NCBI GenBank assembly: GCA_044892525.1
Contig: CM097885.1
Span: 16,058,001-16,122,000, forward strand
Direction of reading: 5' to 3'
From: Schmidtea polychroa
Taxonomy: Eukaryota
Length of the DNA: 64,000 nucleotides
How positions within the stretch are numbered: the first letter of the stretch is position 1; every line of letters starts with the position of its first letter. This document shows, one piece after another, positions 10,975-49,481 of this stretch. The translations under genes and the position numbers were made by a program. The notes below the pieces were generated by a model. That model had not been told where the DNA came from, did no database searches, and saw only the letters and a list, made by a program, of their open reading frames with translations.

Positions 10975-11820
10975 AGATGACTCTTAGCAATACACAAAGC
11001 AATCAAACACTTCCAACATTTATTCGAAGGACGAAACTTAAAAATATTCACAGATCACAAACCGCTAACTAACGCAATCATAATAAAGAACCCCTCACCA
11101 AGTCAAATTAGACAATTCAACTTCATTTTACAATTTAACTGCACAATAAACTACGTAGCGGGAAAATAAACATAGCAGCTGACGCTCTATCAAGAAACGA
11201 AAGTGACATAAACTCCCTGGAATTCGAAAACATAATCAAATTGGATCAAATTAAATCCAAACAAAACGAAACAATTAACAAACTTCCCACTAAACACAGT
11301 TTGAAACTACAAGAACTCAACGGAGTATGGCACGACGTCTCCAACAAAAGCAACAAACGAATATTACTTCAGGAGGAATTCCGTGAAAACTGCATCGAAA
11401 AGATACACAAGATTAATCACTCTGGAAACAAAGTAACATTCGAACTAATAAACAACAATTATATATGGCCTAAAATGCGGAAAGACATCAAAAACTACGT
11501 CAAGAGAGTTCACAGCTGCCAGTTAAATAAAACAACAAAAAACTCAAACCTCTAAAAGTAAACTTCCCAAGCAGCGAAGTCTTCTAAACAATACACACAG
11601 ATATTGTAGGACCACTACCACCAAAAGACAACTACAAATACCTGTTGACAATTATAGACAGCAAATCCAACTGGTTCGAAGTAATCCCAATAGAAGAAAT
11701 CACCGCAAAAAATATATGTGAAATGATCGAATTAAATTGAATAGCTTGTTATGGCCAACCGAAAACATTCATAACCGATCAAGACAGACAGTTCGAATCA
11801 GAAATGTTCAAAATACTCTG
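10975..11820 (+). pseudogene. Ty3/gypsy pol relic (RNase H and integrase), multiply disrupted
   Basis: KIFTDHKPL, the HHCC region YIWPKMRKDIKNYVK and IHTDIVGPLP occur in several frames. Confidence 0.75.
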
Positions 11821-12199
11821 CAACAAATACAACATCAAAAAGAACCGAACAACAGCTTTCTTTGCAGTATTGGGCCAGAACGACTGGAAAACCTTTAATT
11901 CCCAAGCATATCTCCTCAACTGACTTCTATATATCCAAAACTTCGTAACCTAGAATATCTTTTTTTCTAACTACAATAATAACTAAAAAAAGGAAAATTA
12001 CAACACATTTATAACGAACATTCATTTAATTTTTGATGTTGCACAAGTCTAATAAGAATCCATAGAGTTACAGAATTACATCAAGTCTGAAATTTGAGTC
12101 GTCTAAATCAGCATTAAAGAAAATATAAGGCTGCTGGGCCAGTGTGATGGTGGATTGGGTTGTACTTGTTGAAGGCATTGGAGGGATTAATTGGAGAAT

Positions 12200-17606: not shown

Positions 17607-19900
17607 CTGCCAAGTGTCCGCTGCTTGATAGTCAGAAAGCTCCTGGCGTTTAGCGATAAATTCCAATACAAAATTGCAGGTGAACTTAGAATCGCCCAGC
17701 CACTGGATAGCCATTTCCATAACCTAGAGAAGGAAATCCAAAATCAAATCGAATCGCAACCCCTCGACACCCATTACCTCCTCATTTGGCACCTCCTTTA
17801 ACAACTCGATCACAGTATTTAATTCGAACTCTTCGGAGAATTTAGCGAGCCTTTTCAAGCACCATTTAGTCAGCTGATCCACTGATCCGATTTCTTGCTT
17901 ATAATTAGACGCAACTGGCGCTTGATGTTATTGTTGCTGCTGTCTATGAACCGGATTGATCGATGGCTATTTCATATTACAATTCCATTCCCCATAAATA
18001 TATAACCATTTTACTTCGTTTATTTTGTGGTTCTGTGGTTTAGAATTGCACTCGGCCGTTACCACCGCGGCTGGCACCACCACCTTATTATGTACAGGAA
18101 CATCGCTGGGAATCATATCCCAGATCGATTTGCCAACTGGGATCTGTGCGGGTTTGGGTGTCTGCTTCAGCAATGACTCCTTGAATGACTACAAGAACAG
18201 AAATCATCATCTTCTTGTAATTTTATTCAATTCCAATTCATTACTGTCACTTTATTCGTTTCTATTTGATTAACTTTCATTGCTTTTTCTATTTCTTTAG
18301 TTTTCTTGGCTTTCAATGCTTCTTCGGCTTGGATTTCTACAAGTGATTTGGCTGCAGGAGAAACATTTTGAGACAAAGTTTGTCCTGATTTCCAAGTGGA
18401 AGGAGTTTCAGTTTTATTTTGACTGGTCTTTAAATTATTCCATTATAAAGATTTGTATTATAATTACAGAATAATTATTGGATTATTATTGAATTATTAT
18501 TGAATAATTATTGGATTAATGAATTATTATTGGATTAATGAATTATTATTGGATTAATGAATTATTATTGGATTAATGAATTATTATTGGATTAATGAAT
18601 TAATATATGATTAATGAATAATTATTGGATTAATGAATTATTATTGGATTATTGATTTATTATTGGATTAATGAATAATTATTGGATTAATGAATTATTA
18701 TTGGATTAATGAATAATTATTGGATTAATGAATAATTATTGGATTAATGAATTATTATTGGATTAATTAATAATTATTGGATTAATGAATAATTATTGGA
18801 TTAATGAATTATTATTGGATTAATTAATAATTATTGGATTAATGAATTATTATTGGATTAATGAATTATTATTGGATTAATGAATTATTATTGGATTAAT
18901 GAATTATTATTGGATTAATGAATTATTATTGGATTAATGAATAATTATTGGATTAATGAATAATTATTGGATTAATGAATTATTATTGGATTAATTAATA
19001 ATTATTGGATTAATGAATAATTATTGGATTAATGAATTATTATTGGATTAATGAATAATTATTGGATTAATGAATAATTATTGGAATAATGAATTATTAT
19101 TGCATTAATGAATTATTTGTGTTATTTTTAGATTAATGAATTATTAGTGTTATTATTGGATTATTGAGCTATTAATGGATTAAAGTAATTACTGTATAAA
19201 AAGTGCAAATTTAAAATCAATACAGAGAGAAAAATCCTGATATTGCCCATAATTTATTGAAACACGTGGAATTCAACATGCATTTAAATTCCCGACCAAT
19301 CACATGGAATCACGCGAGAATAACAATAATTTTTGCCCAAAATTTAAATAATATGAAAAAAATAAAATCAATTACTTCATTTGATAATTCTAATTTTTTT
19401 AAAACTTCATGTTGCTCTTTTGCTATTTTTTCTTTCAAAGTTTCTTCAGCCTGGATTTGCAGCAAAGATTTTGTTGCAATTACCGGAGGTTTAATCAAAG
19501 CTGGCATGTCATTTTTTATAGATTTTTCCTTTTCAGTAAATAACTTAATAAATATAAATTCAATTGAAATTGGTTCCTAGTTGGTAAATAACAAGATTAC
19601 TGGAATTTTGTTTGATTCAGACAAATTTGTTGATTTTGATTGCTTGTTTTTTCTATTACCTACTTCTACTATTTTCGGTTTTACTGTTCCATCAACTTTT
19701 ACTTTTAACTGAGATTCCTTTAGAGTTGGTAATTGTTCTTTTATTGATTTATCGGAATCTTTCATAACAACAGAACTGTCAGACAATTTATTTTCTGTGC
19801 CCATTTGATTGGGTGATTTTTGAGCCTGAGGAGCAGCATTCCAAATTGACTTTACCTGTTCTACTTTGCAAGTTTCTTTTGGCGAAGTATTTCGTACAAC
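17607..19900 (-). CDS. GIGYF-family protein, C-terminal exons only (GYF domain not seen; last exon possibly near 16400-16506)
   Basis: Spliced exons give two KSL(L/V)(Q/E)IQAEE motifs and LTKWCLKRLAKF..LLKEVPNEE|VMEMAIQWLGDSKFTCNFVLEFIAKR. This resembles the GIGYF1/2 C-terminal domain (FTQWCE..FLKEVES..YLGDT..FAKQFLERR). Confidence 0.6.
18480..19150. repeat. Intronic minisatellite, 19-bp unit (aatgaattattattggatt), about 30 or more copies
   Basis: Direct periodicity of 19 nt, for example 18841 and 18860. Confidence 0.9.
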
Positions 19901-21134: not shown

Positions 21135-24100
21135 TTCAACAATCTGTTGGCATATGTGGGGAAAAGAAAATTATTGCATGCATTACCATTACACACACCA
21201 TGCATCATTACTCCGCTCAGATGCTCCCCATACATACACCAAATGATCATGTACATATTCCCACGCATGAGCCCGTGGTGATGTTCCACGTTGGTGCTGC
21301 TCACACGGGTTGGAAAAGGTTAGCAGGTGAGCCTCTGCCTTAAGACTACTCCTAACCCTTTCTCGGTTCGGGTTCCATGGCGCCTTAGAAGGTCTTACCC
21401 AGTTCTACATACATAATTCAGTCCGACCTTGGTCCAAGGGGACGACCTTGTATTATTACTTACATTCGACATCATCCTTTCACTCGTATCAACTTCGATA
21501 TCCCACCTGTTAAAATCAATCGTCAGAAACAATAAGAGATGTATTAACTCATAACAAATCATTACACGCAGAATAATCAAGAACTGTTTTATATGTAAAC
21601 ATTCAGTATTTATAAACACTCAAGTTCACTTCGGGACCCTGCATAGAACAAGGCACCTTTGAATTGATCAATCGAAGGGTTCTCCGTCCGCAAGCATTTC
21701 GTCGATATCGACCGGTAATCGTTGGTTAGAAATGTACTTGATGCCTTCTGCCGGTATTACACGAAAGATTTCCTTAGTTGGGATGAAATGGCTGGAGGAT
21801 ATTTCTCTTATGGTAGATTGAGCTACAGATAATGACGCCTCGAGAGCAGCCATCGCATCTCGGCGTTTCTGATTTTTCTCGCCCCGGGTTGGCCGTTTCC
21901 GTTTGCGAGACGACGGGGGATTGTCAGTGTGCGGCGTGACGACGGGTGCCACCAGAATTGGAGCCAAGATGGGATCGGTAGGTCCACCTAACAAGGGTTG
22001 ATAACCCGATAAGGTTGGAGCTGGAACGGGCGGTAGGCACGATCCATGCCCTTGGCAGCTCGTAGTAGTCGGTTTGGATACTTGATGATGAAGAGGGAAG
22101 ACGTTCATTTTCTCTATGACGGGAAATTCCCGTACCCGCTTGGCTAGTTCTGCCTCCGTATAAACCTTGTGGAGGGCTTCTGATTGGGCTTTGATTGTAA
22201 GCCGTTGGCAACGGCTCTCCTCCAGCAAGCTATCTCTACAATGTTCTAGCCGCAATATTTTACTTCTCTCCTCCTTCATTTGTGGCGGGGAGAACCACGT
22301 GCCTTCGTAAAGGTCGATTCTTTTCTTTAAAGCCCCGATGTATAGATGGAGCTGCGCGATATCTGCATTTTTATCTGCGCAGGAGAAACATGGGCGAAGA
22401 GTTTTCTCAGCAGTTGTAGGAGTAGTCATCTAAAGAATGAGAAGTCCTTTATTTACATCATTAAAATCCTTTCTACTATTTATTTTTTTTTATAACGTGA
22501 GCTTTATCCTACCACATATGCATACAATCAGGATTGACCCCACATTCATACCTTTGACATCACTTAACTCATCCAAACCGTAAACCTTCAAATCAACTCA
22601 CCCCATCGTTCGTAATGAAAAGAAAATGAGAACCATCAAACGTTATTTCTCTACTCATATTGATATTGTACCTAGGTTCCTGGGTCGACAATTATCATCT
22701 AATCGCAATAAGTTACTTCTTACCACCGATATATTTTTTTCACTTTTATTTATTATTACCTATTAAATGTGGGTCTACTCCCTGGTTTTTATGGCTTATT
22801 GAGTTATGCCTGCTTTAATTTAAAAGAAGTAGTTCCATACTGTTGATGCACTTTGCGCTGTATTAAGTTAAAACGAATTTGTTAAAATTTATTATAAGTA
22901 TTAATTTCCCTCATAAATTATAATTTAATTATTTAAATTTTCGCATTTCATGTTGTCATAACGACGCATATCGGTATGTAGTCGTGTACTGGTTTCAGGC
23001 TCTACCTGATGTGCACTAATGTGTATTATCTCGTCTTATTCAATTATCGCTGTCCCCCCTTAACAACTTCTAGACATTGTGTCTGTTAGTGTACTTTGAT
23101 CTCGTCGTTTATTTATGCATGCCTACTAACACATTCTACTATGACGCAATGATGATGTCGACTCACTCACGTCCCTTGTATTAGTGGATTTATCTGTGTG
23201 TAGGTTTGGGTCTGCTTATCTCAGTTACAGCATTATTAGTAGATGGGCTAGACGAATGGAAGATAAGGAGTCAGACTTATAGAAGTAACGATTGTTGTGA
23301 TTTCAAGATTGCCCAAATCTGTTATCGGTTGAAAAATGGATTTAACTCTTGTGTTGTTGACTATTCTCAAAAACCTAATCGTCTCATCGATTTGGCGCAG
23401 GTCGTTCCACAGTCGAACCGCTGGAATATTTTATCTATGCTGCTTGCTTCTCTACAATAGTCGTTTCTCGATCAGATGGAAAAATTTATCGATAATTGGT
23501 TCGAAATGGTCGAATGATAATTTCCTTTAGGACTATAGTAAGTGCTTATGATTAATTAGAACTTTGCTGTTTACTTTTCTGTCAGGGCGAATCCTTATCG
23601 ATGACAGTAGCTAATCGAAGGTTGATAATTAAGTCTCCTCCACGTCAAATGACATATCACCGCGATGGGTTTAATCGCTAACGCTTTCTTAATTTATCCA
23701 TTCTTAGAAATATAGAATATTCCAGATTTTTATCATTCATCAAGAAAACGAAAATGGACGTTAGAATTATCAGTGAAGTTCGAGAATTTCATCACCCTCA
23801 AGGATAGTCGGTATTCATATTCTGACGACAGGAGGTGACCTAACTCTGAATTGAATATGGCCGAACTCAAACTCGGATTAAATATCGAAAAATGTGGTCG
23901 ATCTCCTAGAATTTCCAGTCAGCGTGTTGTCGGCATCGAAACCGTATCGCTCAGAAGCTTCCTCAATAGAAAGTTTTCGACGGCTAATTTTATGGATATC
24001 ACTCGATGAAAGGATCGTTGACTCGATTTGTTTTCTCTCACAGGGTTTCCTTACCCCTCCCAAACCACCCAAGGACAGTACGCATTTCTGCCTACTACCC

Positions 24101-25621: not shown

Positions 25622-26600
25622 TTAATAATTAAATCTCAATAATGGGAGATGATAATGCAGAAATAATAATTTCTCTGCGTTGCGTGGAAGAAGTTTATTT
25701 CTTCTCTCCTCGTAAATAATACCAGCCTCGCTGAACAATCTTTCACTGGGTATACTGCTAGGAGGCGCTGATAGGTATCGTCTAGCCACTTTTGATAGTG
25801 TTCGATAAATATTTGCGTTATTCGACAACCAAACCAACGGATTTTCGGTACGAGGAATGTTAGGATGTTTGAGAAAATTTAAAAGTTGAATATTATCTGT
25901 TGAACTTCCTACGGTATAGGTTTCTTCTTCAATGGATTTATTTTCAAATAAAATTTCATCTGTGCAAGCCCACACATCTTCATTTTTATCATGATTATTT
26001 TTTCCATGTTCTGCAGGTTCTCTCTGTTTATTGTCATTGTTTTTATCAATACTTCTAGAAGAAATATTATTCATTTCTTCTATAATCCAATTTTTAGCAA
26101 TAATTTGTGTATCGGGTTTTAAAATTTTAAGTTTGTAAATGGGATCTAATACCGTAGCTATTACATACAACTTATTCTTTTCCATATTTTCAAATGGAGC
26201 CTCTAAAGATTTTATCATTTCTTTTTTCATCGTTTGTGTTCCTTCATCGTGTAGTTTTTTACAGAGAAAGCGCTCTAAGGCAACTACATTTGGTATCACC
26301 ATCAAAATAAGAGTTTCCTCTCAACTGGCTTCAACTGTAACGATGTAAAATTGCTCCAATAAGATAACTATATTTTCAATTAATTTAAAATTTGCTGCAT
26401 TCAAGTTTGATATATTGTAATCTGAGGAATATAGTGTGATGGCATCTTTTTGTTCTAAAGTCCTCTTGAACATATGATACGTCGAATTCCATCTAGTGAC
26501 TACGACTTGTACTAATTTGTGTTGTGGAAGCGAATGTTTGGTTTGTATTTCTTTCAACTTAGTACTACCTACTTGCGAGTGATTAAAATGGGTTACTATA
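25622..26600 (-). pseudogene. hAT (ZBED/Ac-like) transposase, 3' part; its 5' part resumes at about 40061-40183
   Basis: VVTRWNSTY, IATVLDP.YK and the dimerisation motif PPSSIPSERLFSEAG; frameshift near 26310. Removing 26601-40060 restores CFICSIQLVIH..SISAKCRNIVTHFNHS. Confidence 0.85.
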
Positions 26601-27340
26601 AGTAGTGAATAGTAAGGACTCCAACTCACTTTCAAGGTCATGGAATATCAAGATCAAATATAGACCAATCGAATCATTTATTTTTTAAATTAACATTTTA
26701 TTTAATTACTTCTTTTTAATTTTATTAATTAATTATTTTATGATGTTATATTTTAATTACTTACTTTAGTTAATTTTTAATTTATTACATTTAATTAATT
26801 TATTAGTTTATTAATATTTTATTTTAATTACTTACGCTTTTTAATTATTATTATTATTATTATTATTTTTAATTTTATTTAATTACTTCTATTTTTTTTT
26901 CTCTTTAATTTTATTAGTTAATTATTTTATGATGTTATACTTTAATTACTTATTTTAGTTAATTTTTAATTTATTACATTTAATTAATTAATTTGTTTAT
27001 TAATACTTTATTTTAATTGCCAACGTTATTTAATTATTATTTATTTATTTTTTAATTTTACATTATATTCTAACAAGAGCGTAAATTATAACAATAATAT
27101 TTCAATTTGAATAAAATTTTAATTGGTAATTATCATAAAATAAAGCTGTGTTAATTTAAATAAAATGGGCATTAATTTTTCAAAACAAAGCAAAGTTTTT
27201 CATGATAAATAATAATTCTTACTTAAAACTAATTATCTAAATTAATTGGACAAATGAATTATTAAATGATAAAACATATTTTAATTAACGAAGTCAAATA
27301 ATTCACAATATATATTTTATTATTCACATAAATTTAATTG

Positions 27341-30233
27341 TTAAAGTTCTTGTTTCGATTTGCATTCATTTGTAGACGGAGCAGTTGCGATATGCATTTG
27401 ACGAATCTTATAGTGACCGTAGGCATAGCTTTCATTAGAATTGAACCAATACCTTTTTTCATCCAAACATTGGAGAGCTCGTTTTTCAGTAATGAAAGTA
27501 TACAACTGATGATTAACACTTCCTATTCTCTTTTGTTGGATGCTCACTGTTCCACCATCAGTATACACTTTTTTATAGGCTTCATGGGTGATATTAGAAT
27601 TTGTAAGACTTATTCCTTTGGCTTTTAGAGTGTTTTTATCTCCTTGGAGTGAGTAGCACTTGGGTCGAAGAAACACCCATTCTTTATATTGATTTCCTTT
27701 ATTCTCATCCTTGAATTTCCCGATTACCGAACAAATTTTATCTGAGAACAATGGATCAGTCACCGGATAATTTGAAGTATCTAGGAGCCCATCGGCAATC
27801 ATTTTTGGATACAGTTGTAAGCGTAAATCAACATTTTTACACTCTAAAAAGAAGGAATCTGTGTCACCGGCTACGATATTAATTTGACAATTGAATTCTT
27901 CTCTATAACTCTGTAGTTCTTTATATTGAAACTGGTACATGCGAAGTTTAGATAAATCAAGTACGGTTTGTCCAATATACATTGGTCTATCTAAACACAC
28001 CATTTCCTTATCAAGTATAACAGCAATGAGATCATCCGCAATCTTGATGCTACGACGAAACATAGGATTACTACAATAAGTTATCAATCTTTTGCTTTTG
28101 CTGCATAATCTCAAATTTATACGTTTCTTAAGGTTTTCCACGGTTTTACCATATAAACTGTTGTTCTTTAACTTATAATAATCTCGCTGAAATGAATCTG
28201 TACTAGCTGCTCTCATTTGAGTATTGTAATCAATATAGCGTTTGAAAATAGCTACTTGCTTGAATTCTACAGCACGATTAACTTTTGTGACTTTTGCGCC
28301 GTAACTCAACCACTCTGTCAAAACTCTACCATTAACTACATAGTTTTTCTTAGGCTCATGAGTTAACAACAGCTTTTCAACTTTACTACCAGGTGGATAA
28401 CAAAGCTCAGGAGCTATAGGTAAATCATCTAGCTTATCTTGTATACTATCAGGAATGACGATGTCAACCTCTAGAACATATCCACGATCTCCATCAAACT
28501 CATCCCCATTTGCACATCTTTCAACAATACCATTCATTTCAGTATGATCATTTATCCATCTAAATTCACCAATAGGAAGTTTTTGCGACAGCGCCCATCC
28601 ATATAAATTATTAACATCTAGGTATGACATTTGTGTTGATTCATCAGCTTCAACATGATGTTTGTTGATAAATGTCATTCCACCACGAATACCAGCTTCA
28701 AATAAACGGTAAAGCTCTGGATCTTGAATGAGTTCTACCGGTTCAGGTAACTGTTTAATAGCTGATGCCCAACTTAATCCGGGTATGGAAACAAACGATA
28801 AAGCCTCAAGTCCATCTTCGTCAAATGTTTTTTCTCTGAAAGCTTCAAAAACATCGGCCAACACAAAAACATCCAACTTGAGATATACTAGCATGTAATC
28901 TAGCAGTGTCTCACAGTTATATTGTCGCCAGATTTGATTTGCATGTATATAATCTTCTTGACTAACTCCCTCCCAAATCGATGGTAATTCTGTTATTGAC
29001 TGTAAAACATCCATTGACGTAGCAATATCATAAGGAAATATGCCTTTACCAGTTATTAGATGCGAATTGAAAATCTTTGAAGTAAGTGGAAGACGTGGCA
29101 AGTTTTTTGATAAATTTGCCAAGCTGCTATTTAAAAATTGTAAAGAATCAATGAATCTAATTCTTCTGCCTTTCGATGTCGCTGTAAGTGTGAGAAACTT
29201 TTCTGTTGATTGAGGAATAACAATTAAATTCCAATCTGGGAATTTTCCAATTGCATATTTTAATATATGATGAATGTCATATCCACGAAGATTATGAAAT
29301 ACAACAGGTAAAGACGGATTGATTCTTCTAGCCAAATTACAATCTTGACACGCTGCTCCGAGATATTGACCAGTAAAATGATCATGATCTCGAACGGGTA
29401 TATTGATAATCTTTTTACAAAGGTAGCAATGAGTTTGAGTCGTGAATTCTTCCTGCTCTTCCCAAGTGAGTTCCATCATTTCCTTTGATCCATTAATTTT
29501 ATACCACGGATAAACTATGTCTGTAGCTATATCATCCAATGCTTGTATGAACTGAATGATACAGTTTTTCCCAACAAATGTTTCATTTCGGATCGGACAA
29601 CCTTGATGGAGAAGCACAAATTCAGATGCAATCGGCTCATGTTTTTGGAAGTGTTTGTCATCTAGAGGTAATATCGATTCAAAGTCCGCGTAGACAACAA
29701 ACTGCTGTTTTATAGTTTTACTCCAATCTTTAAATTCGATATATTTATTCTCTGGCATTGAGTATAGAGTCGTACGCTCCACATTCTTCCTACAAAGACC
29801 TATATGTCTTTCAAAAGCAGGACGTTTTTGAAACCCATGAAGACACGTATGACACCAATGTGATTGGATTCTGACTCCTTCTACTCTATCTCTGTAATTC
29901 AGCAGTCGATCGAGATTAGTTACAGCCAAAAAATGATAATTTAATTCTAAATTTAGTTAATATTTTTAATGATTAAAGGAAATATTACCTTCTTCAATCA
30001 ATAGGAGATATATCTGAGATCCCGTCGAAGTACTTCTATATACCAAGTCAATGAACGGATTCTTGAAAATATCATTAGTTTTTTGTTTAATTGGATCTTT
30101 ATTATATTTGAGAACATTGATCGCTAGATTTGGATTAATTGCTTCAAATTGGCAAATGTTAACCAACTTCATCGGAAACCATTCAAATTTCCATTTTAAG
30201 TCTTAAAAACAAAATTCAATGATTTATGACATT

Positions 30234-30314
<81 letters not shown>

Positions 30315-31386
30315 CCACTTAAGTTATATTTTGTTGTTCTTTCTCTATTCCGACGTATATCATCATAACGTAACACAGCTAGTATGCTATATAAAAAACA
30401 GAATTGATCATTGTTTTGAACATTAATTAAAGCCTGACAGTTTTTCAGGTAATTTGGCGTTTTAATGTAACTTGAACCTAAGTAATCTCTTGATTTATAT
30501 ATATATAATAATGTAAATAATCTTACCAGATACATGTATTATGTCTGATAATTTAGTTAAAATCATAGTAACTTCTAATATTTTATGAATTCTCCACCCA
30601 CTACTTTGTTGAGTGTATTTCTCCAACTTTTCTTTTAATTTTTCAATTCCATCATTAATAAATGAAGATGACATTGTAATTGCTTTATTCGACAAACACC
30701 ATTTTTTAATTTCACCATCCTCTTTGATAAACTCTGCACAAAGTCCAAATTGGATTTTTACTGTCCCCATTCGTTGAATATGATCTTCTATTTCTTTGAT
30801 GAGACAATCTGGAACAACAATGTCAGGAGAATTAATTGCAGATACATCGCTTGTCAATTCAACACGAGAACCGTTTAAGTCAGACTCCCGACGTGGACAC
30901 AATTGTATGTTAGAGTCTCCATTTCCGTAAAATATTGACTTTCGTTTTGTGGTGCCAGAGTTTTGTCTAACTATATTTATAATTAATATTAAACAACTTA
31001 AATAACATAACTTGTAACATATTCTTTAATCTCCTTAGGATCGTATGATGTATTCATTTTCGATTGTACTATAAAAAATTAATAATTGTTAATAGTAGAA
31101 AGAGTATTACTTTTAGTGATCATCCTGCTCTTCGTTTCTTCGAATCTTCTAAGATGGTGTCCGTGTTGTCGTACAAACATTAACCACCTACCTGGTGTTA
31201 TAATGAGACATTCCGGACATATGTAACCCGATAAGGTAGAGTCATTTATCTTGAAATATGATGATGTAACTGATTTACAGTTCTCCACATCTTCATGACT
31301 TTCGGCAATACAAAATTTATATAAACTGCATCCGTTCACTAAAAAATAATCATTAATATTAGATAGAGAATAAAAATTTATTCACT
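27341..31386 (-). CDS. Protein-primed family B DNA polymerase (Maverick type), left-arm copy, spliced, about 1236 aa
   Basis: Mirror image of the right-arm gene. ExoI VYADFES, ExoII FHNLRGYD, ExoIII YLKLDV, PolA YLDVNNLYG, PolB KLKNNSLYGK and PolC AGDTDS are intact. Confidence 0.9.
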
Positions 31387-32614
31387 TATATAAGTTAAAT
31401 TAAAAGTTTAAATGACAAACATTTGAAAAGTTACTGCTTATATATTACACATGATTAAATTCTGACCAATCAAAATCAAGGAAGGGGTAGGAAAAATAAA
31501 TATATTCTGACCAATCAAAATCAAGGAAGGGGTAGGAAAAATAAATGCATTACATTGCAGTATTTTAAAACTTAAATTTTAAAACACATTTTGACGCTAA
31601 AGTTGACTTATTTAACATTTTCATAATAATTTAATAAAAATAATGTGTTGAACTCACAAAGTAATATCATTTTTTTTCATCAAATTGCAAAACAGTAATA
31701 ACGTTTTCATAAAATTGTAACAAAGTAATAACATATTTCAGATAAATTTTCAACAGTTGTAAAATATTTATCAAATTGTAACTAAAATAATAAAAATATT
31801 GCAACAAAGTAATAAAATAATGATGTTAATTGGGACAAATCAATACATTATTTCGAAGACGGACAACAAATTAAAAAAGAATATTGTAATAAATTGTGAA
31901 GTCTTTCAGTAAATTACAACAAAGTAATAACATATTTCGGAAATATTTCACCAGATGTAAAATATTTAAGCAAATTGTTATAAGATTATAAAAATATTGC
32001 AACAAAGTAATAAAATAATACAACATTTTAAACTCTAGATCAATCCATTTTATAGAAAATTAAATTTTATCTCTATAATATATGAATAAATATACAAGGA
32101 AATTACGTTAACGTATAATAAAACATGTGTGTATTACACACAAAACAAGATACATAATTTCTAATCAATCCATTTTATAGAAAATTAAATTTTATCTATA
32201 TATTATATGAATAAAATCCTAAGAAAATTACGTTAACCGCGCGAAAAATACAAATTTATCGTAAAAACATGTGTGTATTACACACAACATACGAGACATA
32301 ATTTTTAATCAAGCTATTTTATAGAAAATTAAATTTTATCTATATATTAAATGAATAAAAATCCAAGAAAATTACGTTAACCGCGCGAAAAAATACAAAT
32401 TTATTGTAAAAACATGTGTGCATTACACACAAAGCACCAAACTGAAATTGTAATTGCGCCGTGTTGTAGAGAATTAAATTCTGCCTATACATGGTTACAC
32501 TTAAATCTCGATCAGACCTGTGAAAAGAGACATAAAAGATAAAAAACAGTAGAGTAGTATGATGTGGGCCCGCCCGGCCAGGAGCCCGCTCGGCCACATA
32601 TACCCCCTCCCCCC

Positions 32615-32841
32615 GTGTGTAAAATAATGTTAATAATAATATTTATATATCAGTAGATAGATCTCGCACTGGGCCTTAAAATGAGCTATAGATCAATAAA
32701 ATCTGTTGGTGGGAACATTAAGTTTTGAGCAAACGAAAACCAGGAGCCCGCCAGACCACTTAATAATATTTTTTGAAAATAATAATGATTTATGAGTCAT
32801 CGTATGAGTCATCGAATGAGTCATCGTTCTAAAAATACATG

Positions 32842-32904
<63 letters not shown>

Positions 32905-33108
32905 TTCTTGGGAGTTGTAATAATAATTCTTTGAAAATATCTTAGTCATTATTAATAATACTAATAATACCCTAGCGAGTTGTTGATTGTGAGTAGTACC
33001 CTTGTGTGCAGTACCCATGTGACTTGTTGAGTGTGAGCAGTACCTTTGTGAGCAATACCCATAGGGGGACAGAATATCTTGTCGGATAAACTCGGAGTAT
33101 ATAATAAT

Positions 33109-33168
<60 letters not shown>

Positions 33169-34026
33169 CAACGATTTAAACAAATTAAATTAATATGTAA
33201 TCGATAATTAAAACAAAGATTATTAGTTCTAAAATTATTAGGCATCATTCTAAAAATATGACGTAATCATTCTAAAAATATGTGGCATCGTTCTAAAAAT
33301 ATGTGGCATCGTTCTAAAAATATGAGTCATCGTTCTAAAAATATTAGGCATCGTTCTAAAAATATGATGTAATCATTCTAAAAATATTAGGCATCATTCT
33401 AAAAATAATAGACATCGTTCTAAAATTATGATGTAATCGTTCTAAAAATAATAGACATCGTTCTAAAAATATTTGGCATCATTCTAAAATATTAGAAAAC
33501 ATTCTAAAAATGTGATGAGTCATTGTCTTTGTTCTAAAAATGTGATGAGTCATCGTATGATAAAAATCTATATCTCATTAGAAAGTTCTTGCACAGAGCT
33601 TTAAAATAAGCTATCGATCAATATAATATGTTGGCGGGAACAATAATTTTTGGGATGAAAAAAAGTAGGTCCCCGCTGGATCACTTAATAATATTTTGAA
33701 AAATAATAATAATTTAACGTTGAAAAGATGGTGGTCATCAATTGTTAATAACATTAAAACTATTAAAGATATATATGATACCTATAGCTCATTCGAAAGG
33801 TCTTGGACTGAGCTTTAAGATGAGGTATCGGTTAATAAAATTTGTTGGCGGGAACATTACTTTTGGGAAGAAAAAAAGTAGGTCCCCGCTGGATCACTTA
33901 ATTTAAAAAAAATTACGTAATAGTTCTAAAAATATTAGGCATCGTTCTAAAAATATTAGGCATTGATTACGTAATAGTTCTAAAAATATTAGGCATCGTT
34001 CTAAAAAAAAAATAAAATTTTTTCCC
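32615..34026. repeat. Non-coding spacer of the palindrome: 21-bp satellite (gttctaaaaatattaggcatc), three ~95-bp units, (AAT)n tracts, TGAGTCA cluster
   Basis: Units at about 32670, 33597 and 33810; satellite at 33230-33550 and 33920-34005; TGAGTCA three times at 32792-32824. Confidence 0.8.
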
Positions 34027-35100
34027 GGGGGGGGGGGGAGGGGGTATATGTGATCTGGAGGGGACATGGCCGGGGGAGCCCACATCCTACTACTCTACTG
34101 TTTTTTATCTTTTATGTCTCTTTTCACAGGTCTGATCGAGATTTAAGTGTAACCATGTATAGGCAGAATTTAATTCTCTACAACACGGCGCAATTACAAT
34201 TTCAGTTTGGTGCTTTGTGTGTAATGCACACATGTTTTTACAATAAATTTGTATTTTTTCGCGCGGTTAACGTAATTTTCTTGGATTTTTATTCATTTAA
34301 TATATAGATAAAATTTAATTTTCTATAAAATAGCTTGATTAAAAATTATGTCTCGTATGTTGTGTGTAATACACACATGTTTTTACGATAAATTTGTATT
34401 TTTCGCGCGGTTAACGTAATTTTCTTAGGATTTTATTCATATAATATATAGATAAAATTTAATTTTCTATAAAATGGATTGATTAGAAATTATGTATCTT
34501 GTTTTGTGTGTAATACACACATGTTTTATTATACGTTAACGTAATTTCCTTGTATATTTATTCATATATTATAGAGATAAAATTTAATTTTCTATAAAAT
34601 GGATTGATCTAGAGTTTAAAATGTTGTATTATTTTATTACTTTGTTGCAATATTTTTATAATCTTATAACAATTTGCTTAAATATTTTACATCTGGTGAA
34701 ATATTTCCGAAATATGTTATTACTTTGTTGTAATTTACTGAAAGACTTCACAATTTATTACAATATTCTTTTTTAATTTGTTGTCCGTCTTCGAAATAAT
34801 GTATTGATTTGTCCCAATTAACATCATTATTTTATTACTTTGTTGCAATATTTTTATTATTTTAGTTACAATTTGATAAATATTTTACAACTGTTGAAAA
34901 TTTATCTGAAATATGTTATTACTTTGTTACAATTTTATGAAAACGTTATTACTGTTTTGCAATTTGATGAAAAAAAATGATATTACTTTGTGAGTTCAAC
35001 ACATTATTTTTATTAAATTATTATGAAAATGTTAAATAAGTCAACTTTAGCGTCAAAATGTGTTTTAAAATTTAAGTTTTAAAATACTGCAATGTAATGC

Positions 35101-35240
35101 ATTTATTTTTCCTACCCCTTCCTTGATTTTGATTGGTCAGAATATATTTATTTTTCCTACCCCTTCCTTGATTTTGATTGGTCAGAATTTAATCATGTGT
35201 AATATATAAGCAGTAACTTTTCAAATGTTTGTCATTTAAA
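35101..35240 (+). promoter_or_regulatory. Probable Pol II promoter of PolB: 45-bp tandem duplication with two inverted CCAAT boxes, TATA and Inr (mirror at about 31410-31545)
   Basis: gattggtcagaat occurs twice, TATATAAG at about 35203, and TCATTT at 35232-35237, about 30 nt downstream and just before the first exon/intron. Confidence 0.6.
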
Positions 35241-35260
35241 CTTTTAATTTAACTTATATA

Positions 35261-36332
35261 AGTGAATAAATTTTTATTCTCTATCTAATATTAATGATTA
35301 TTTTTTAGTGAACGGATGCAGTTTATATAAATTTTGTATTGCCGAAAGTCATGAAGATGTGGAGAACTGTAAATCAGTTACATCATCATATTTCAAGATA
35401 AATGACTCTACCTTATCGGGTTACATATGTCCGGAATGTCTCATTATAACACCAGGTAGGTGGTTAATGTTTGTACGACAACACGGACACCATCTTAGAA
35501 GATTCGAAGAAACGAAGAGCAGGATGATCACTAAAAGTAATACTCTTTCTACTATTAACAATTATTAATTTTTTATAGTACAATCGAAAATGAATACATC
35601 ATACGATCCTAAGGAGATTAAAGAATATGTTACAAGTTATGTTATTTAAGTTGTTTAATATTAATTATAAATATAGTTAGACAAAACTCTGGCACCACAA
35701 AACGAAAGTCAATATTTTACGGAAATGGAGACTCTAACATACAATTGTGTCCACGTCGGGAGTCTGACTTAAACGGTTCTCGTGTTGAATTGACAAGCGA
35801 TGTATCTGCAATTAATTCTCCTGACATTGTTGTTCCAGATTGTCTCATCAAAGAAATAGAAGATCATATTCAACGAATGGGGACAGTAAAAATCCAATTT
35901 GGACTTTGTGCAGAGTTTATCAAAGAGGATGGTGAAATTAAAAAATGGTGTTTGTCGAATAAAGCAATTACAATGTCATCTTCATTTATTAATGATGGAA
36001 TTGAAAAATTAAAAGAAAAGTTGGAGAAATACACTCAACAAAGTAGTGGGTGGAGAATTCATAAAATATTAGAAGTTACTATGATTTTAACTAAATTATC
36101 AGACATAATACATGTATCTGGTAAGATTATTTACATTATTATATATATATAAATCAAGAGATTACTTAGGTTCAAGTTACATTAAAACGCCAAATTACCT
36201 GAAAAACTGTCAGGCTTTAGTTAATGTTCAAAACAATGATCAATTCTGTTTTTTATATAGCATACTAGCTGTGTTACGTTATGATGATATACGTCGGAAT
36301 AGAGAAAGAACAACAAAATATAACTTAAGTGG

Positions 36333-36389
<57 letters not shown>

Positions 36390-39282
36390 AATGTCATAAA
36401 TCATTGAATTTTGTTTTTAAGACTTAAAATGGAAATTTGAATGGTTTCCGATGAAGTTGGTTAACATTTGCCAATTTGAAGCAATTAATCCAAATCTAGC
36501 GATCAATGTTCTCAAATATAATAAAGATCCAATTAAACAAAAAACTAATGATATTTTCAAGAATCCGTTCATTGACTTGGTATATAGAAGTACTTCGACG
36601 GGATCTCAGATATATCTCCTATTGATTGAAGAAGGTAATATTTCCTTTAATCATTAAAAATATTAACTAAATTTAGAATTAAATTATCATTTTTTGGCTG
36701 TAACTAATCTCGATCGACTGCTGAATTACAGAGATAGAGTAGAAGGAGTCAGAATCCAATCACATTGGTGTCATACGTGTCTTCATGGGTTTCAAAAACG
36801 TCCTGCTTTTGAAAGACATATAGGTCTTTGTAGGAAGAATGTGGAGCGTACGACTCTATACTCAATGCCAGAGAATAAATATATCGAATTTAAAGATTGG
36901 AGTAAAACTATAAAACAGCAGTTTGTTGTCTACGCGGACTTTGAATCGATATTACCTCTAGATGACAAACACTTCCAAAAACATGAGCCGATTGCATCTG
37001 AATTTGTGCTTCTCCATCAAGGTTGTCCGATCCGAAATGAAACATTTGTTGGGAAAAACTGTATCATTCAGTTCATACAAGCATTGGATGATATAGCTAC
37101 AGACATAGTTTATCCGTGGTATAAAATTAATGGATCAAAGGAAATGATGGAACTCACTTGGGAAGAGCAGGAAGAATTCACGACTCAAACTCATTGCTAC
37201 CTTTGTAAAAAGATTATCAATATACCCGTTCGAGATCATGATCATTTTACTGGTCAATATCTCGGAGCAGCGTGTCAAGATTGTAATTTGGCTAGAAGAA
37301 TCAATCCGTCTTTACCTGTTGTATTTCATAATCTTCGTGGATATGACATTCATCATATATTAAAATATGCAATTGGAAAATTCCCAGATTGGAATTTAAT
37401 TGTTATTCCTCAATCAACAGAAAAGTTTCTCACACTTACAGCGACATCGAAAGGCAGAAGAATTAGATTCATTGATTCTTTACAATTTTTAAATAGCAGC
37501 TTGGCAAATTTATCAAAAAACTTGCCACGTCTTCCACTTACTTCAAAGATTTTCAATTCGCATCTAATAACTGGTAAAGGCATATTTCCTTATGATATTG
37601 CTACGTCAATGGATGTTTTACAGTCAATAACAGAATTACCATCGATTTGGGAGGGAGTTAGTCAAGAAGATTATATACATGCAAATCAAATCTGGCGACA
37701 ATATAACTGTGAGACACTGCTAGATTACATGCTAGTATATCTCAAGTTGGATGTTTTTGTGTTGGCCGATGTTTTTGAAGCTTTCAGAGAAAAAACATTT
37801 GACGAAGATGGACTTGAGGCTTTATCGTTTGTTTCCATACCCGGATTAAGTTGGGCATCAGCTATTAAACAGTTACCTGAACCGGTAGAACTCATTCAAG
37901 ATCCAGAGCTTTACCGTTTATTTGAAGCTGGTATTCGTGGTGGAATGACATTTATCAACAAACATCATGTTGAAGCTGATGAATCAACACAAATGTCATA
38001 CCTAGATGTTAATAATTTATATGGATGGGCGCTGTCGCAAAAACTTCCTATTGGTGAATTTAGATGGATAAATGATCATACTGAAATGAATGGTATTGTT
38101 GAAAGATGTGCAAATGGGGATGAGTTTGATGGAGATCGTGGATATGTTCTAGAGGTTGACATCGTCATTCCTGATAGTATACAAGATAAGCTAGATGATT
38201 TACCTATAGCTCCTGAGCTTTGTTATCCACCTGGTAGTAAAGTTGAAAAGCTGTTGTTAACTCATGAGCCTAAGAAAAACTATGTAGTTAATGGTAGAGT
38301 TTTGACAGAGTGGTTGAGTTACGGCGCAAAAGTCACAAAAGTTAATCGTGCTGTAGAATTCAAGCAAGTAGCTATTTTCAAACGCTATATTGATTACAAT
38401 ACTCAAATGAGAGCAGCTAGTACAGATTCATTTCAGCGAGATTATTATAAGTTAAAGAACAACAGTTTATATGGTAAAACCGTGGAAAACCTTAAGAAAC
38501 GTATAAATTTGAGATTATGCAGCAAAAGCAAAAGATTGATAACTTATTGTAGTAATCCTATGTTTCGTCGTAGCATCAAGATTGCGGATGATCTCATTGC
38601 TGTTATACTTGATAAGGAAATGGTGTGTTTAGATAGACCAATGTATATTGGACAAACCGTACTTGATTTATCTAAACTTCGCATGTACCAGTTTCAATAT
38701 AAAGAACTACAGAGTTATAGAGAAGAATTCAATTGTCAAATTAATATCGTAGCCGGTGACACAGATTCCTTCTTTTTAGAGTGTAAAAATGTTGATTTAC
38801 GCTTACAACTGTATCCAAAAATGATTGCCGATGGGCTCCTAGATACTTCAAATTATCCGGTGACTGATCCATTGTTCTCAGATAAAATTTGTTCGGTAAT
38901 CGGGAAATTCAAGGATGAGAATAAAGGAAATCAATATAAAGAATGGGTGTTTCTTCGACCCAAGTGCTACTCACTCCAAGGAGATAAAAACACTCTAAAA
39001 GCCAAAGGAATAAGTCTTACAAATTCTAATATCACCCATGAAGCCTATAAAAAAGTGTATACTGATGGTGGAACAGTGAGCATCCAACAAAAGAGAATAG
39101 GAAGTGTTAATCATCAGTTGTATACTTTCATTACTGAAAAACGAGCTCTCCAATGTTTGGATGAAAAAAGGTATTGGTTCAATTCTAATGAAAGCTATGC
39201 CTACGGTCACTATAAGATTCGTCAAATGCATATCGCAACTGCTCCGTCTACAAATGAATGCAAATCGAAACAAGAACTTTAA
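35261..39282 (+). CDS. Protein-primed family B DNA polymerase (Maverick type), right-arm copy, 7 exons, about 1236 aa
   Basis: Coding exons 35261 (A of ATG), 35309-35536, 35579-35635, 35677-36120, 36170-36331, 36422-36634 and 36677-39282 total 3711 nt in one frame. The spliced N-terminus restores the Maverick PolB motifs GSSYI.TP..L..INVQN.D..CFLYSILA and FP.KL..I..FE..NPN..INV. An EndoVII-like CYLC..RDHDH..C..CN insert is present. Confidence 0.9.
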
Positions 39283-41126
39283 CAATTAAATTTATGTGAA
39301 TAATAAAATATATATTGTGAATTATTTGACTTCGTTAATTAAAATATGTTTTATCATTTAATAATTCATTTGTCCAATTAATTTAGATAATTAGTTTTAA
39401 GTAAGAATTATTATTTATCATGAAAAACTTTGCTTTGTTTTGAAAAATTAATGCCCATTTTATTTAAATTAACACAGCTTTATTTTATGATAATTACCAA
39501 TTAAAATTTTATTCAAATTGAATAATTACTAATTAAAATTTTATTCAAATTGAAATATTATTGTTATAATTTACGCTCTTGTTAGAATATAATGTAAAAT
39601 TAAAAAATAAATAAATAATAATTAAATAACGTTGGCAATTAAAATAAAGTATTAACAAACAAATTAATTAATTAAATGTAATAAATTAAAAATTAACTAA
39701 AATAAGTAATTAAAGTATAACATCATAAAATAATTAACTAATAAAATTAAAGAGAAAAAAAAATAGAAGTAATTAAATAAAATTAAAAATAATAATAATA
39801 ATAATAATAATTAAAAAGCGTAAGTAATTAAAATAAAATATTAATAAACTAATAAATTAATTAAATGTAATAAATTAAAAATTAACTAAAGTAAGTAATT
39901 AAAATATAACATCATAAAATAATTAATTAATAAAATTAAAAAGAAGTAATTAAATAAAATGTTAATTTAAAAAATAAATGATTCGATTGGTCTATATTTG
40001 ATCTTGATATTCCATGACCTTGAAAGTGAGTTGGAGTCCTTACTATTCACTACTACTATATTGCGACACTTTGCGGAAATAGATTTTTGAGAATATATGC
40101 TATAATGAATTACCAATTGGATGCTACAAATAAAACAGGACTCGTTTCTCAAATAGGCAATATTTGATCATCTGATCATATTAAGTAGGTAGAAGTGAGC
40201 CCACGATGACTCATCGTTAAGGTCAACTTAAGGCCATAGAAAATTCTGAGGTCAATGTCATTTTCAGGACAATTTAAGGTCAATTTAAGCCATATAAAAG
40301 TCAAATTCTGAAGGCAAAGTTTATTTTAGGCCATTTTATGGTCAAATCTTTAGGTCAAAGTCGATTTTAGGCTATTTTAAGGTCAACGTTTGAGGCCAAA
40401 GTCTAATTTTTCCCAATTTAAGGTCAAATTTTAAGGTATTAGAAAATTTTAAGGTCAACCCCCTACCCCTAATTTTAGGGTCCTAGAAAATTTTAAGGTC
40501 AACCCCCCTACCTCCTAACCTTTAATTTTAAGGTCAAATTGAGGTCAAAATTAAAAATTTTCTTAAGTCCATTTAACGAATTACTTTATAGAAAATTTTC
40601 AAGTCAAAACACGTTTTAATACTACGTTTGCAAATGTCTTTGTTACACATGCATTTGCAAATGTCTTTGTTACTCATGCATTTGCATTGCAAATGTCTTT
40701 GTTACTCATGCATTTGTATTGCATATGTCTTTGTATTACACACCATAAGGATAGAAAAAATATTTCTAAGGGAGATCTAAAGTAAATGTGTGTAAAGGGC
40801 AATAAATAAGGGTAAAATCAATTTTTTTAAGAAAATACATGTAATTNNNNNNNNNNNNNNNNNNNNNNNNNNNNNNNNNNNNNNNNNNNNNNNNNNNNNN
40901 NNNNNNNNNNNNNNNNNNNNNNNNNNNNNNNNNNNNNNNNNNNNNNNNNNNNNNNNNNNNNNNNNNNNNNNNNNNNNNNNNNNTGTGTGTCTGTATATGA
41001 AAACATTGATAAGGAGCAATAAATATCAAATCAAATCTCTTATGTTTTACATATGACTATATTAACCAATCAGAATCATAACCAGTATTAGTATAAATAA
41101 AACAGAATATTTAAAATTAATGTACA

Positions 41127-46705: not shown

Positions 46706-49481
46706 CAGGCCCCCAGTGTTCATTGATCCACACCATATAACCAGGCCCTTGATAAGCTTTCAGGAATGTATGCAGTTGACGTTAGAGCTACACCATTAGT
46801 ACAAATACGCATTTAATATAAGCGTGGTGGTGCAGCAGTAAACTTCCGGTCACCTCTCCACATTTACACCTCACTGTGAAGTATTTAGTTATATTCTATT
46901 AAGGAAACTTCCAACTTTCATGTAGAGCGTATAATTGTGCAGAGCTGAAGATGATCCCAAGTTCGTTGGTGTGCTACTGCTACTCTAATAGCTGGCCTTT
47001 ATTCAATCCTGTAGGAGAGGTTAGGATTTACTAGTAGCTCTCTCTTAACTGTGAGGATGAGTGTGACTGGAATGAATGCATTAACGCCCTTGTTGTCATA
47101 TTATTAGGCAGGTGAGGTTGTACAATAAAACTCCTTTAGCCAACAGTTCAATTATCAAAAATTATGTTCACTACCTCTATGAACAAAACTTATAATTTTA
47201 TGTTTATATTATAAAAAAAAATCGATAATATTATAAAGTTTATATTATAAAGTTTATAATATTATCGATTTTTTTATGAAATAAATTTGCAATTTCAACC
47301 ACAGTTGAGGATGAGCACTATTACAAAAAAACGAAAAGTTGACAGTGAACACCGAGTATTTAATGATAAGTGGACATCGGATTATCTGTTTGTAGAATCA
47401 AACAATATGCTCGTTTGTCTTGTTTGCTCGCAATCAATTTCCGTTAAAAAGGAATTTAATGTAAGACGGCATTACCAGACTCAGCATGCAGAAAAGTTCG
47501 ATCAGATACAGGGACAATTAAGGAAAGATAGGATCGAATCTCTCCGAAAAGCACTTCTAGGGCAACAGACATTCTTTATCAAAGTTAATAAAGAGGTTGA
47601 GTGTGTTGTGAAGGCGAGTTTCATGATAAGTGAGATATTGCCAAGAAACTAAAATCGTTATCTGATGGGGAGTTTGTCAAAGAATGCATTGATGCTGCTG
47701 TGGATTGTATCTGTCCCGAAAAGAAACAACTTTTCTCGAATATCAGCCTTTCTCGATTTACAATCGTAAGACGAATTGATGATATTGCAAAAAACATTGA
47801 AACAATCTTGAAAGAAAAAGCTGAACTATTTCAAGCATATTCAATATGCCTTGATGAAAGCACGGATATGACAGACACCGCGCAATTTTTGTGCGTGGGG
47901 TTGATCAGGACTTCCACGTTACGGAAGAACTGTTGAAATTAGCGAGCATGAAAGGGACTACAACTGGAGAAGAGGTTTTTGATGAAATCAAAACTGCATT
48001 GGCAGAAAACGGGCTTTTTCTTCCAAAACTAACAGGAATAACGACAGACGGAGCTCCGGCAATGGTTGGAATAAAAAATGGAGTAGTTGGTTTATTGAAG
48101 GCGGAGCTTGTTAAAATGAAAGGAAGTAAGCAATTAATTTGCTTCACATTGCATAATCCACCAAGAGAATTTATGTGTAAAAGAACTAAAGATGGACCAT
48201 GTGATGACAGTTGTTGTGAAAACCGTGAATTTCATAAGATCACGTGGATTGAATAATCGACAATTCAAAGAGTTTCTCACTAGCATTGAGACAGAATACT
48301 CGGATGTAATTTACTTTAGCGAAGTTCGTTGGCTGAGCAGAGGAAAAGTATTGCATCGCTTTTATTGCCTTCGTGAAGAAATTAAACTTTTTATGGAGAT
48401 GAAGTCGAAACCAATTCCGGAGTTATCCGATCCAAATTGGCTACTTGACTTGGCCTTTTTGGTTGACATCACAACGCATCTGAATGATCTAAACACGAAG
48501 TTACAAGGCCGGGATCAACTGATAAATAATCTTTACGATCATATCAAAGGATTTCAGACAAAGCTGAAACTATGGGAGAATCAATTATCAAAGGACATTA
48601 CGGTGTATTTTCCAAATTTAACTGATTGCAAAAATGATGCAAATTTAGCTAACACGAAGAAATTTAATGAACACATAATTGCATTGAAAACACAGTTTTC
48701 TTCAAGATTTGCTGATTTTGCCGAACATGAAAATGATTTCAAACTATTTTCTGAACCATTCAGTGTTAATGTTGAGACAGCACCAGAATCAATGCAAATG
48801 GAGCTCATTGAATTGCAGTGTAATGGCGATCTGAAAAGAAAGTTTCGTGACGTCTCTTTGATTCAATTCTAAAAACTCTACATTTCTCAGAAAGCGTTTC
48901 CATCAATCCGATATCATGCGCTGAAAATGGTCTCACTTTTCCCCAGCACTTACATCTGTGAACAATTCTTTTCTAAGATGAAACAAACAAAGTGCAAAAA
49001 CAGATGTCGGCTCACTGATGATAACTTGTCAAACGAATTACGAGTAGCAACAGCAACTATCAAGGCAAATATTTCAGATTTATGTCGTGATAAGAAGTGT
49101 CAAATGTCACAGACCAAAACCAGAACAAGATTGATATTGATATGTTGGGTATATTTGAGTAGTATATGCAAACTTGAGAAGCATAAAAAATATAAATTCG
49201 AACAATCCAGAGTTTGTGCGAGTAAATAAACTATAAATATGGGATTATTAAAGTTAAATTTGGGTATTTTCATAGTTTTTATATTTTGCCTTCCAATAAC
49301 AACTAGTATATAGTATATAATATATAATATATGCCTAATCATGTAAATTTAAATGATCTTTGCTATTAAAAAGATATATTATTGGAATATACATTAATAA
49401 ATTCGTATTAAATACATCCGGCCCCCGAAACATTTACAAAGACTGAACTGGCCCCTAACAAAAACAAGTTGCTCATGCCTG
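46706..49481 (+). mobile_element. hAT Charlie/SPIN-like DNA transposon with a frameshifted transposase (about 47311-49080); left boundary tentative
   Basis: KKRKVDSEHRVFNDKW..C..C..RRHY..H, LDESTD, ITTDGAPAM, SEVRWLSRG, FPSTYICEQFFS. Right end GTTGCTCATGCCTG; flanks CATTAGAT and GATTAGAT (7/8, central TA). The left TIR matches only in CAGGC. Confidence 0.7.

Follow-up and report, generated by a model that had tools for sequence, protein, structure and literature searches.

Palindromic Maverick elements with a polymerase as their only gene and a captured terminus at their centre form a young, multi-copy family in Schmidtea polychroa

Introduction

To our knowledge, the replication of Maverick (Polinton) elements and their formation of virions have been inferred but never observed. 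Kapitonov and Jurka are said to have described, in 2006, non-autonomous Polintons that lack integrase and keep their ends. Published Maverick ends are of the (AGT)2/(AG)3 type (PMC8097293), and intact vertebrate copies carry terminal inverted repeats (TIRs) of 46-1,447 bp and, as far as these accounts describe them, no introns (PMC8097293, PMC10748475). The protein-primed DNA polymerase of family B (pPolB) has been described with the layout TP-vOTU-Exo-Palm (PMC11161782), and loci with a pPolB and TIRs and no integrase are among those described from C. elegans (10.1101/2024.01.15.575659). Here we analyze a 64,000-nucleotide stretch of the S. polychroa genome (GCA_044892525.1, contig CM097885.1, positions 16,058,001 to 16,122,000, or C1:16058001-16122000; hereafter the window), which contains a 13,454-bp palindromic insertion with Maverick ends.

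Related replicons are also known outside the Mavericks. In the yeast killer/helper linear plasmid pair pGKL1/pGKL2 (PMC13348850), pGKL1 has its own pPolB (PMC11161782). The bidnavirus BmBDV is described as carrying its pPolB on one segment of ~6.5 kb, with panhandle inverted terminal repeats and genes divided between segments; the same account gives it single-stranded DNA, a 53-nt end common to the segments, a polymerase segment that also bears capsid and other genes, and no integration (PMC4938981). We document below that the insertion in the window belongs to a family with mirrored arms and mirrored variants, a single gene under selection, and another family's terminus at a fixed junction; we give its copy number and target-site duplications (TSDs), and we describe complementary defective classes that share its genome.

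Results

We sampled the 781-Mb genome, covering the chromosome-1 listings and about 110 loci. The insertion in the window is one copy of a young, multi-copy palindromic family, which we call W. A 1-kb polymerase probe matched at ~100% in 40 of 40 scored cases, mostly as inverted pairs, and the exact 27-nt W end occurs 70 times, as 31 inverted pairs and 8 single ends, all 39 loci of which we examined. Every one of the 31 pairs, which define subfamily W1, bounds a two-arm palindrome (12,454-15,737 bp, median 13,406), and 30 have a perfect 6-bp TSD, in two cases within (AT)n tracts. The preliminary description had proposed looking for sister insertions with the same internal junction and different TSDs, and the family supplies them: the junction is the same in 30 of the 31 elements. 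The 30 different TSDs mark a mobile class, not a local rearrangement or a mis-assembly. The single W1 ends comprise three palindromes with one variant end, two hybrids with a different polymerase arm, two truncated copies and one copy at a contig end; none of the 39 loci holds a single-arm W1 insertion that has both ends and a TSD. When a 19-nt end pattern was searched with up to two mismatches, we found 450 ends (control 7), with individual loci taken from the first 100 matches listed, and these add an older subfamily, W2. All 12 of the loose-pattern loci and 5 single ends fetched were palindromes, deletion products of palindromes, single arms or fragments. Two palindromes (C1:72992 and C1:42578300; loci L084-L085 and L209/L150/L210) have inverted host flanks as well and are either true inversions or assembly artefacts.

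The window copy, a W1 element, spans 26601..40054 and has the AGTAGT...ACTACT termini and the flanking TSD ACTATA (26595..26600 and 40055..40060, + strand) that had been reported for it. Its left arm (26601..32552, - strand) runs from the outer end AGTAGTGAATAG through AT-rich repeats, an outward-reading polymerase gene and promoter-side tandem repeats to a terminal CAGTAG, and the right arm (34095..40054, + strand) is its mirror. Self-BLAST of the window returned a single inverted match of 6,048 columns at 98.9% identity (26601-32614 against 40054-34033), in agreement with the near-identity of the arms noted earlier; they differ at two single-nucleotide polymorphisms (SNPs; 26999/39656 and 30427/36220), by 24 nt of (AT)n and by a 32-nt block (39523-39554), and the innermost ~55 bp hold further mismatches. 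This block is the ~32-bp duplication first placed near 39510, which is real but is no peculiarity of the right arm: since 61 of the 62 W1 arms in the 31 paired copies have it, it is the family norm, and the left arm of the window element has lost one copy.

The element interrupts a hAT transposase gene, whose 3' part lies at 25622..26600 (- strand, PF05699 E 2e-17) and which continues at 40055..40183 (- strand). Both sister hAT copies that we fetched run uninterrupted through the site with a single ACTATA, and in seven local paralogues of the hAT-Maverick junction the hAT and the Maverick end lie 124 bp apart, which is exactly the window spacing minus the element and one TSD. Together with the TSD, these natural empty sites uphold the idea of one integration event. 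The hAT gene that the empty site was suggested to restore is broken in any case, with a stop near 26321 and a cut at 40184 by a second Maverick. That second element is a decayed Maverick of family H (see below) at 40184-~46000, with the end AGTAGGTAGAAG and integrase and capsid-side remnants, 129 bp from the palindrome; its junction with hAT is repeated seven further times at C1 15.6-16.0 Mb, each time without the palindrome.

The sole coding homology in a W element is to a protein-primed polymerase, with one outward-reading gene per arm. The left gene (27341..31386, - strand; PF03175 E 4e-32, with an HNH/EndoVII-like insert, PF02945 E 3e-4) has its main exon at 27341-29946, and the right gene (35261..39282, + strand) has its main exon at 36677-39282, with motifs that we take to be Exo I-III and Pol A-C; a Cys and a His are taken as a putative vOTU dyad. 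While a polymerase in each arm had been correctly recognized, the gene extends beyond the 805-aa open reading frame (ORF) first assigned to it, and six predicted introns divide its 5' part into short exons. Relatives of 1,100-1,300 aa (45-63% identity) continue to align through the upstream pieces of the arm, where the alignment is interrupted by AT-rich inserts with stops. All six introns are of the GT-AG type; five are of phase 1, either 41-49 nt long or containing (AT)n, and the sixth splits the start codon and is present in 62 of 62 W1 arms. On the left they are placed at 29947-29988, 30202-30315 ((AT)n), 30478-30526, 30971-31011, 31069-31110 and 31339-31385 (- strand), and on the right at 35262-35308, 35537-35578, 35636-35676, 36121-36169, 36332-36421 ((AT)n) and 36635-36676 (+ strand). 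Splice dinucleotides are retained, with one acceptor lost at one intron among the 62 arms, and intron lengths vary by non-multiples of three. Both main polymerase exons are open in 29 of 31 W1 elements, and the ratio of non-synonymous to synonymous substitution rates (dN/dS) between W1 and W2 is 0.13-0.17 by a rough Nei-Gojobori estimate on five non-independent pairs; as judged from this ratio, the W polymerase is under purifying selection. Together, the six introns and the low dN/dS between subfamilies argue for a stable, selected lineage.

The W polymerase had 0 matches in a PDB sequence search at E 1, its relatives in metagenomes lie on seven short contigs (1.1-3.4 kb, 52-59%) that carry no gene context, and no relatives were found in viral contigs. 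In contigs from four sequencing runs, 15 of 276 joints were listed and none of these was a splice joint; such contigs carry no information on ends, strand or free DNA, and we do not use them as evidence. Within the family, the reported absence of integrase, ATPase, protease and capsid genes is borne out, as none of 20 J and H proteins (families described below) used as tblastn queries matched any of the 39 palindromes at E 0.01. This lack of integrase homology supports the earlier proposal that a helper's integrase inserts these elements in trans.

The insertion had also been described as two polymerase arms and nothing else, which the centre of the element contradicts. Between the arms lies a non-coding cassette of 1,542 bp (32553..34094, no strand assigned) with its own Maverick-type ends, AGTAGTA(T/G)GATGTGGG at each end, tandem repeats and six TGA(G/C)TCA motifs, and most of it is TIR of a Maverick family that we call J. 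The J TIR copy occupies 33140..34094 (- strand; aligned over 980 columns with bases 1-967 of a complete J Maverick, at 91% identity), and a short J-end copy at 32553..32614 (+ strand; 77% over 62 bp) is the likely fold-back point. The cassette is flanked by mirrored CAGTAG/CTACTG and no direct TSD, and the same junction of CAGTAG with AGTAG is found on both sides in 30 of 31 W1 elements. Across W the cassettes measure ~0.2-2.8 kb and are non-coding and rich in TGA(G/C)TCA or TGACCTTG repeats. In W2 copies, a terminus of another family, M, sits at the very junction where W1 has its J terminus. Family-M ends number 672, and where they form free pairs they bound elements with Maverick genes, with a TSD in 6 of the 7 free pairs seen; J ends occur 1,024 times in the genome. 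In the loci sampled, the J-derived part of W is the central cassette only, the outer W ends having just AGTAG(T), 5-6 terminal bases, in common with J, H and M. No single-arm monomer ending at a J end with a TSD was present in the six loci tested.

To compare the arms, we scored variants against the commonest letter of each column, with the inner 110 bp and the (AT)n region set aside. Of the variants private to a single element, 86 appear on both arms and 31 on one arm; of the shared variants, 171 appear on both arms and 13 on one. Three elements with recombinant tracts contribute 76 of the 86 mirrored private variants, and ten other elements each have one isolated private SNP, likewise mirrored. 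The median SNP distance is 0 between the arms of one element and 14 between elements, and at three W2 loci an identical stop codon stands on both arms. The simplest reading would be that arms are corrected in a single-stranded stem before insertion and drift freely afterward; the 31 uncorrected one-arm variants are what one would expect if correction ends at insertion.

Family J is as young as W1, with 40 of 40 scored integrase matches at 99-100% (W1, 40 of 40 at ~100%). Of the first 25 J matches listed we sampled 20 copies; those skipped were the query, a neighbour and three copies on small contigs. Eleven have their own polymerase, 55% identical to that of W, and nine young copies have none; the TSD is perfect in all nine, and all nine genes are open in five of them. 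Polymerase-less copies (e.g., C1:11739552-11753431) carry integrase, ATPase, capsids, protease and a TBP-like gene (PF00352 E 1e-15), and the gap left by the polymerase is filled by DNA common to the gene-less palindromes described below. We also found three further J copies that lack a polymerase, and five J elements with no genes or almost none. Family H is a complete 17-kb Maverick with a polymerase 56% identical to that of W and older copies (90-99%, apart from the query itself), and we rejected it as a parent on these grounds and kept it only as a possible helper. One H copy (C1:15291637-15305807), which has a TSD, shows inverted ends extended by several kb, which take the place of the integrase side.

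The proposed full-length parent of W did not emerge: no complete Maverick with a W polymerase occurred in any locus fetched, in what is a sample of the genome and an incomplete census. In a FastTree phylogeny of 98 polymerases, run with no topology test, H, J and the family K described below group together (0.996) and W stands apart, near metagenomic proteins with weak support. Since its polymerase is only ~55-56% identical to those of J and H and is placed outside their clade, W is not a copy-back product of either. The larger W1 copies (14.7 and 15.7 kb) and a 17.4-kb W2 pair were considered as parents and set aside, as they contain only expanded repeats or an extra end fragment. Likewise, C1:180867084, a candidate missing link with helper genes in its centre, is actually a separate Maverick nested in one arm. 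A complete-type Maverick whose polymerase DNA is 73% identical to J is nested in one arm of a W2 element (locus L199-L200).

Short pairs of J ends led to a second family of polymerase palindromes, K. We had considered such pairs as free-standing mini-J elements, but all six sampled are the centres of K palindromes. Family K has an intronless polymerase of ~1,300 aa, shares its inner ~1 kb and its junction with W, and has TSDs in 4 of 5 extended elements; K ends give 1,165 matches, and the elements inspected are these few (L145, L147-L150, L201-L210). We also found W/K hybrids, in which a J cassette sits between one K arm and one W arm (C3:7843727-7857337, loci L075-L076; and L005-L006). Gene-less palindromes of 9-15 kb with J ends and arms of up to 6.6 kb occur as well (L133-L134, L141 and L131-L132), with a TSD in the first two.

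The remainder of the window contains other repeats and genes. A second hAT-like transposase, recognized by eye, is frameshifted (47260-49226), and an integrase of a long-terminal-repeat retrotransposon lies at 13522-14754 (PF17921, PF00665). Two related 253-aa ORFs without a Pfam match lie in GC-richer repeats at 21668-22429 (- strand) and 51773-52534 (+ strand), with a relative in locus L240. A RING/MATH (TRAF-like) segment is duplicated at 7997-11857 and 59414-62221 with 89-93% identity, a proteasome subunit ORF lies at 5864-6556, and a 19-bp minisatellite lies at 18463-19191.

Discussion

We consider it probable that W is a young family of polymerase-only palindromic satellites that likely copies itself and likely borrows its integrase from complete Mavericks, probably those of family J. 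As for its origin, a strand consisting of outer end, polymerase, promoter and J terminus may have folded back at two inverted J ends and been extended along the arm, doubling it; such an extension would leave mirrored CAGTAG/CTACTG around the cassette instead of a direct TSD. In each later round, the displaced single strand could form a 6-kb stem with a 0.2-3-kb loop, in which one arm would be recopied or repaired from the other before insertion. The W polymerase would prime at its own AGTAGT ends, and the helper integrase (of J, or of M for W2) would take the AGTAG ends and make the 6-bp TSD. Copies whose two arms share a stop codon have been inserted, and so the W polymerase may also work in trans. 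The cassette, which lies upstream of both divergent polymerase genes, probably acts as an enhancer taken from the helper, through which both would become active at the same time, and possibly as a packaging signal as well.

Several observations sit less comfortably with a J-dependent, self-copying satellite. The outer W ends have only AGTAG(T) in common with J ends, and the helper integrase could come from H, M or another family instead. The (AT)n length is unequal between arms in 29 of 31 W1 elements, which means that arms drift or are misread there, and gene conversion after insertion could be a partial source of arm identity. One of the two W/K hybrids has a matching TSD (TTAATT) despite its unlike ends, which a strict stem model does not predict, while the other has none. 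Five shorter W2 copies (6.7-10.8 kb) retain TSDs, and so either the full palindrome is unneeded or arms were deleted after insertion. Finally, the reads, viewed as contigs only, give no sign of splicing, of particles or of the element free in linear or hairpin form.

A possible but unlikely alternative is a split, or bipartite, Maverick, in which the palindromes would supply the polymerase and the polymerase-less J copies the integrase and capsids, as two segments that depend on each other, with the arm doubled to reach capsid size. The nine polymerase-less copies among 20 young J elements, with their perfect TSDs and in five cases a full set of open genes, along with the three more of the kind, are what such a system would contain. 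Sizes are also alike (W1 median 13.4 kb, K 13.4-15.2 kb, J 13.2-16.8 kb, gene-less J palindromes 9-15 kb), and the 39 W1 loci include no single-arm insertion with two ends and a TSD. However, the 11 J copies with their own polymerase are able to serve those without, the share of the latter is possibly inflated by a J query that came from a polymerase-less copy, and no common terminal sequence is found at the outer ends. Polymerase-less J copies also share DNA with gene-less palindromes and may be recombination by-products. We only tentatively suggest that a Maverick system is splitting into segments here, with two polymerase-only palindrome lineages that plug in an active helper's terminus, polymerase-less integrase/capsid elements and gene-less palindromes, all near capsid size.

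The preliminary description had favored a copy-back defective genome, made from a complete parent Maverick that is now or was recently in the genome. Its geometry, with one arm copied from the other by folding back, survives in the satellite reading, and an H copy (C1:15291337) in which lengthened inverted ends have taken over from genes indicates that such events occur here; a parent may also lie outside the chromosome-1 listings and the loci examined. A freshly made defective genome of a resident parent is nonetheless improbable, given a polymerase on a separate branch from those of J and H, one fixed junction, six introns, purifying selection, and two subfamilies with different captured termini. 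We regard as about equally improbable an ordinary non-autonomous foldback transposon, cut and pasted by a Maverick integrase, with the polymerase as cargo and arms homogenized by chromosomal gene conversion. Long inverted repeats are prone to gene conversion, and the gene-less palindromes with Maverick ends have spread too, so that coding is unneeded for spread. Cargo would not be expected to keep a dN/dS well below 1, splice sites despite intron changes that are not multiples of three, and open main exons in 29 of 31 copies, nor would ongoing conversion be expected to leave 31 one-arm variants uncorrected. Two loci do have inverted flanks beyond the element, but an assembly or library artefact (fold-back chimeric reads or collapsed repeats) is hardly credible given 30 different direct TSDs whose flanks are unrelated and not inverted, natural empty sites, several cassette types, and a public run, which may be the source sample, that contains 90% of the sampled arm-cassette-arm words.

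Dozens of near-identical insertions with variants mirrored over 6 kb record replication chemistry in sequence, and a self-copying W would open a way to test the replication of virus-like elements. The satellite swaps helper termini at a single junction yet keeps its selected, intron-bearing polymerase, and defective classes that complement each other expand alongside it. W sequences can serve as markers for free hairpin or protein-capped DNA, and for packaged DNA, in the living host. If the segments are indeed splitting and the arm was doubled to fill a capsid, the resulting size rule would be evidence that Mavericks pass through virions. Screens described as demanding several core genes within 20 kb (PMC10748475) would miss elements of the W type, and such elements may therefore exist elsewhere. 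Palindromes of 13 kb, present in their hundreds, also bear on how stable a genome is and how well it can be assembled.

A literature search that had Repbase and supplements outside its range turned up neither a polymerase-only palindromic Maverick nor a case of helper termini being swapped, so that a prior annotation is possible. With autonomous Mavericks, as described, W shares AGT-repeat ends, a 6-bp TSD, the 13-25-kb size class, and a protein-primed PolB with an HNH/EndoVII-like insert and an N-terminal region that can be aligned to intronless relatives. Unlike them, it has no integrase, ATPase, protease, or major or minor capsid gene, its TIR is ~6 kb long (versus 0.05-1.5 kb in the copies described), its polymerase lies inside the TIR and so is doubled, and it has six introns and another family's terminus in its centre. 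W is thus not an autonomous Maverick and works like a non-autonomous one, being integrated, with Maverick ends and a TSD, and without integrase. Whereas non-autonomous Polintons and remnants are leftovers of a resident family, W is young, expanding and selected, and its polymerase is its own and unrelated to that of the likely helper.

Copy-back and snap-back defective viral genomes and adenovirus panhandle repair involve fold-back copying that duplicates one end and equalizes inverted repeats. In contrast to such defective genomes, W has no matching parent among the loci sampled, and it has a fixed junction, long-term selection and germ-line integration. A 1992 report by Vierula and Bertrand reportedly concerns, to go by its title, a Neurospora kalilo plasmid shortened by deletion whose DNA takes hairpin and duplex forms, and by that title the plasmid resembles W as a hairpin/duplex derivative of a protein-primed linear replicon; we take it to be mitochondrial and not a multi-copy nuclear family with TSDs. 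In pGKL1, as in the proposed W satellite, a protein-primed replicon depends on a helper while retaining a pPolB of its own, but the yeast pair is cytoplasmic, non-integrating and not palindromic, with a toxin as cargo. BmBDV, as described, has a common segment end, whereas W, K and J share only 5-6 terminal bases; its pPolB segment and panhandle-type repeats are nevertheless like those of W, and its complementary gene sets recall those of W/K and polymerase-less J, though complete J elements exist. W and its companions may offer a snapshot of how segmented pPolB replicons, such as bidnaviruses and yeast plasmid pairs, originate.

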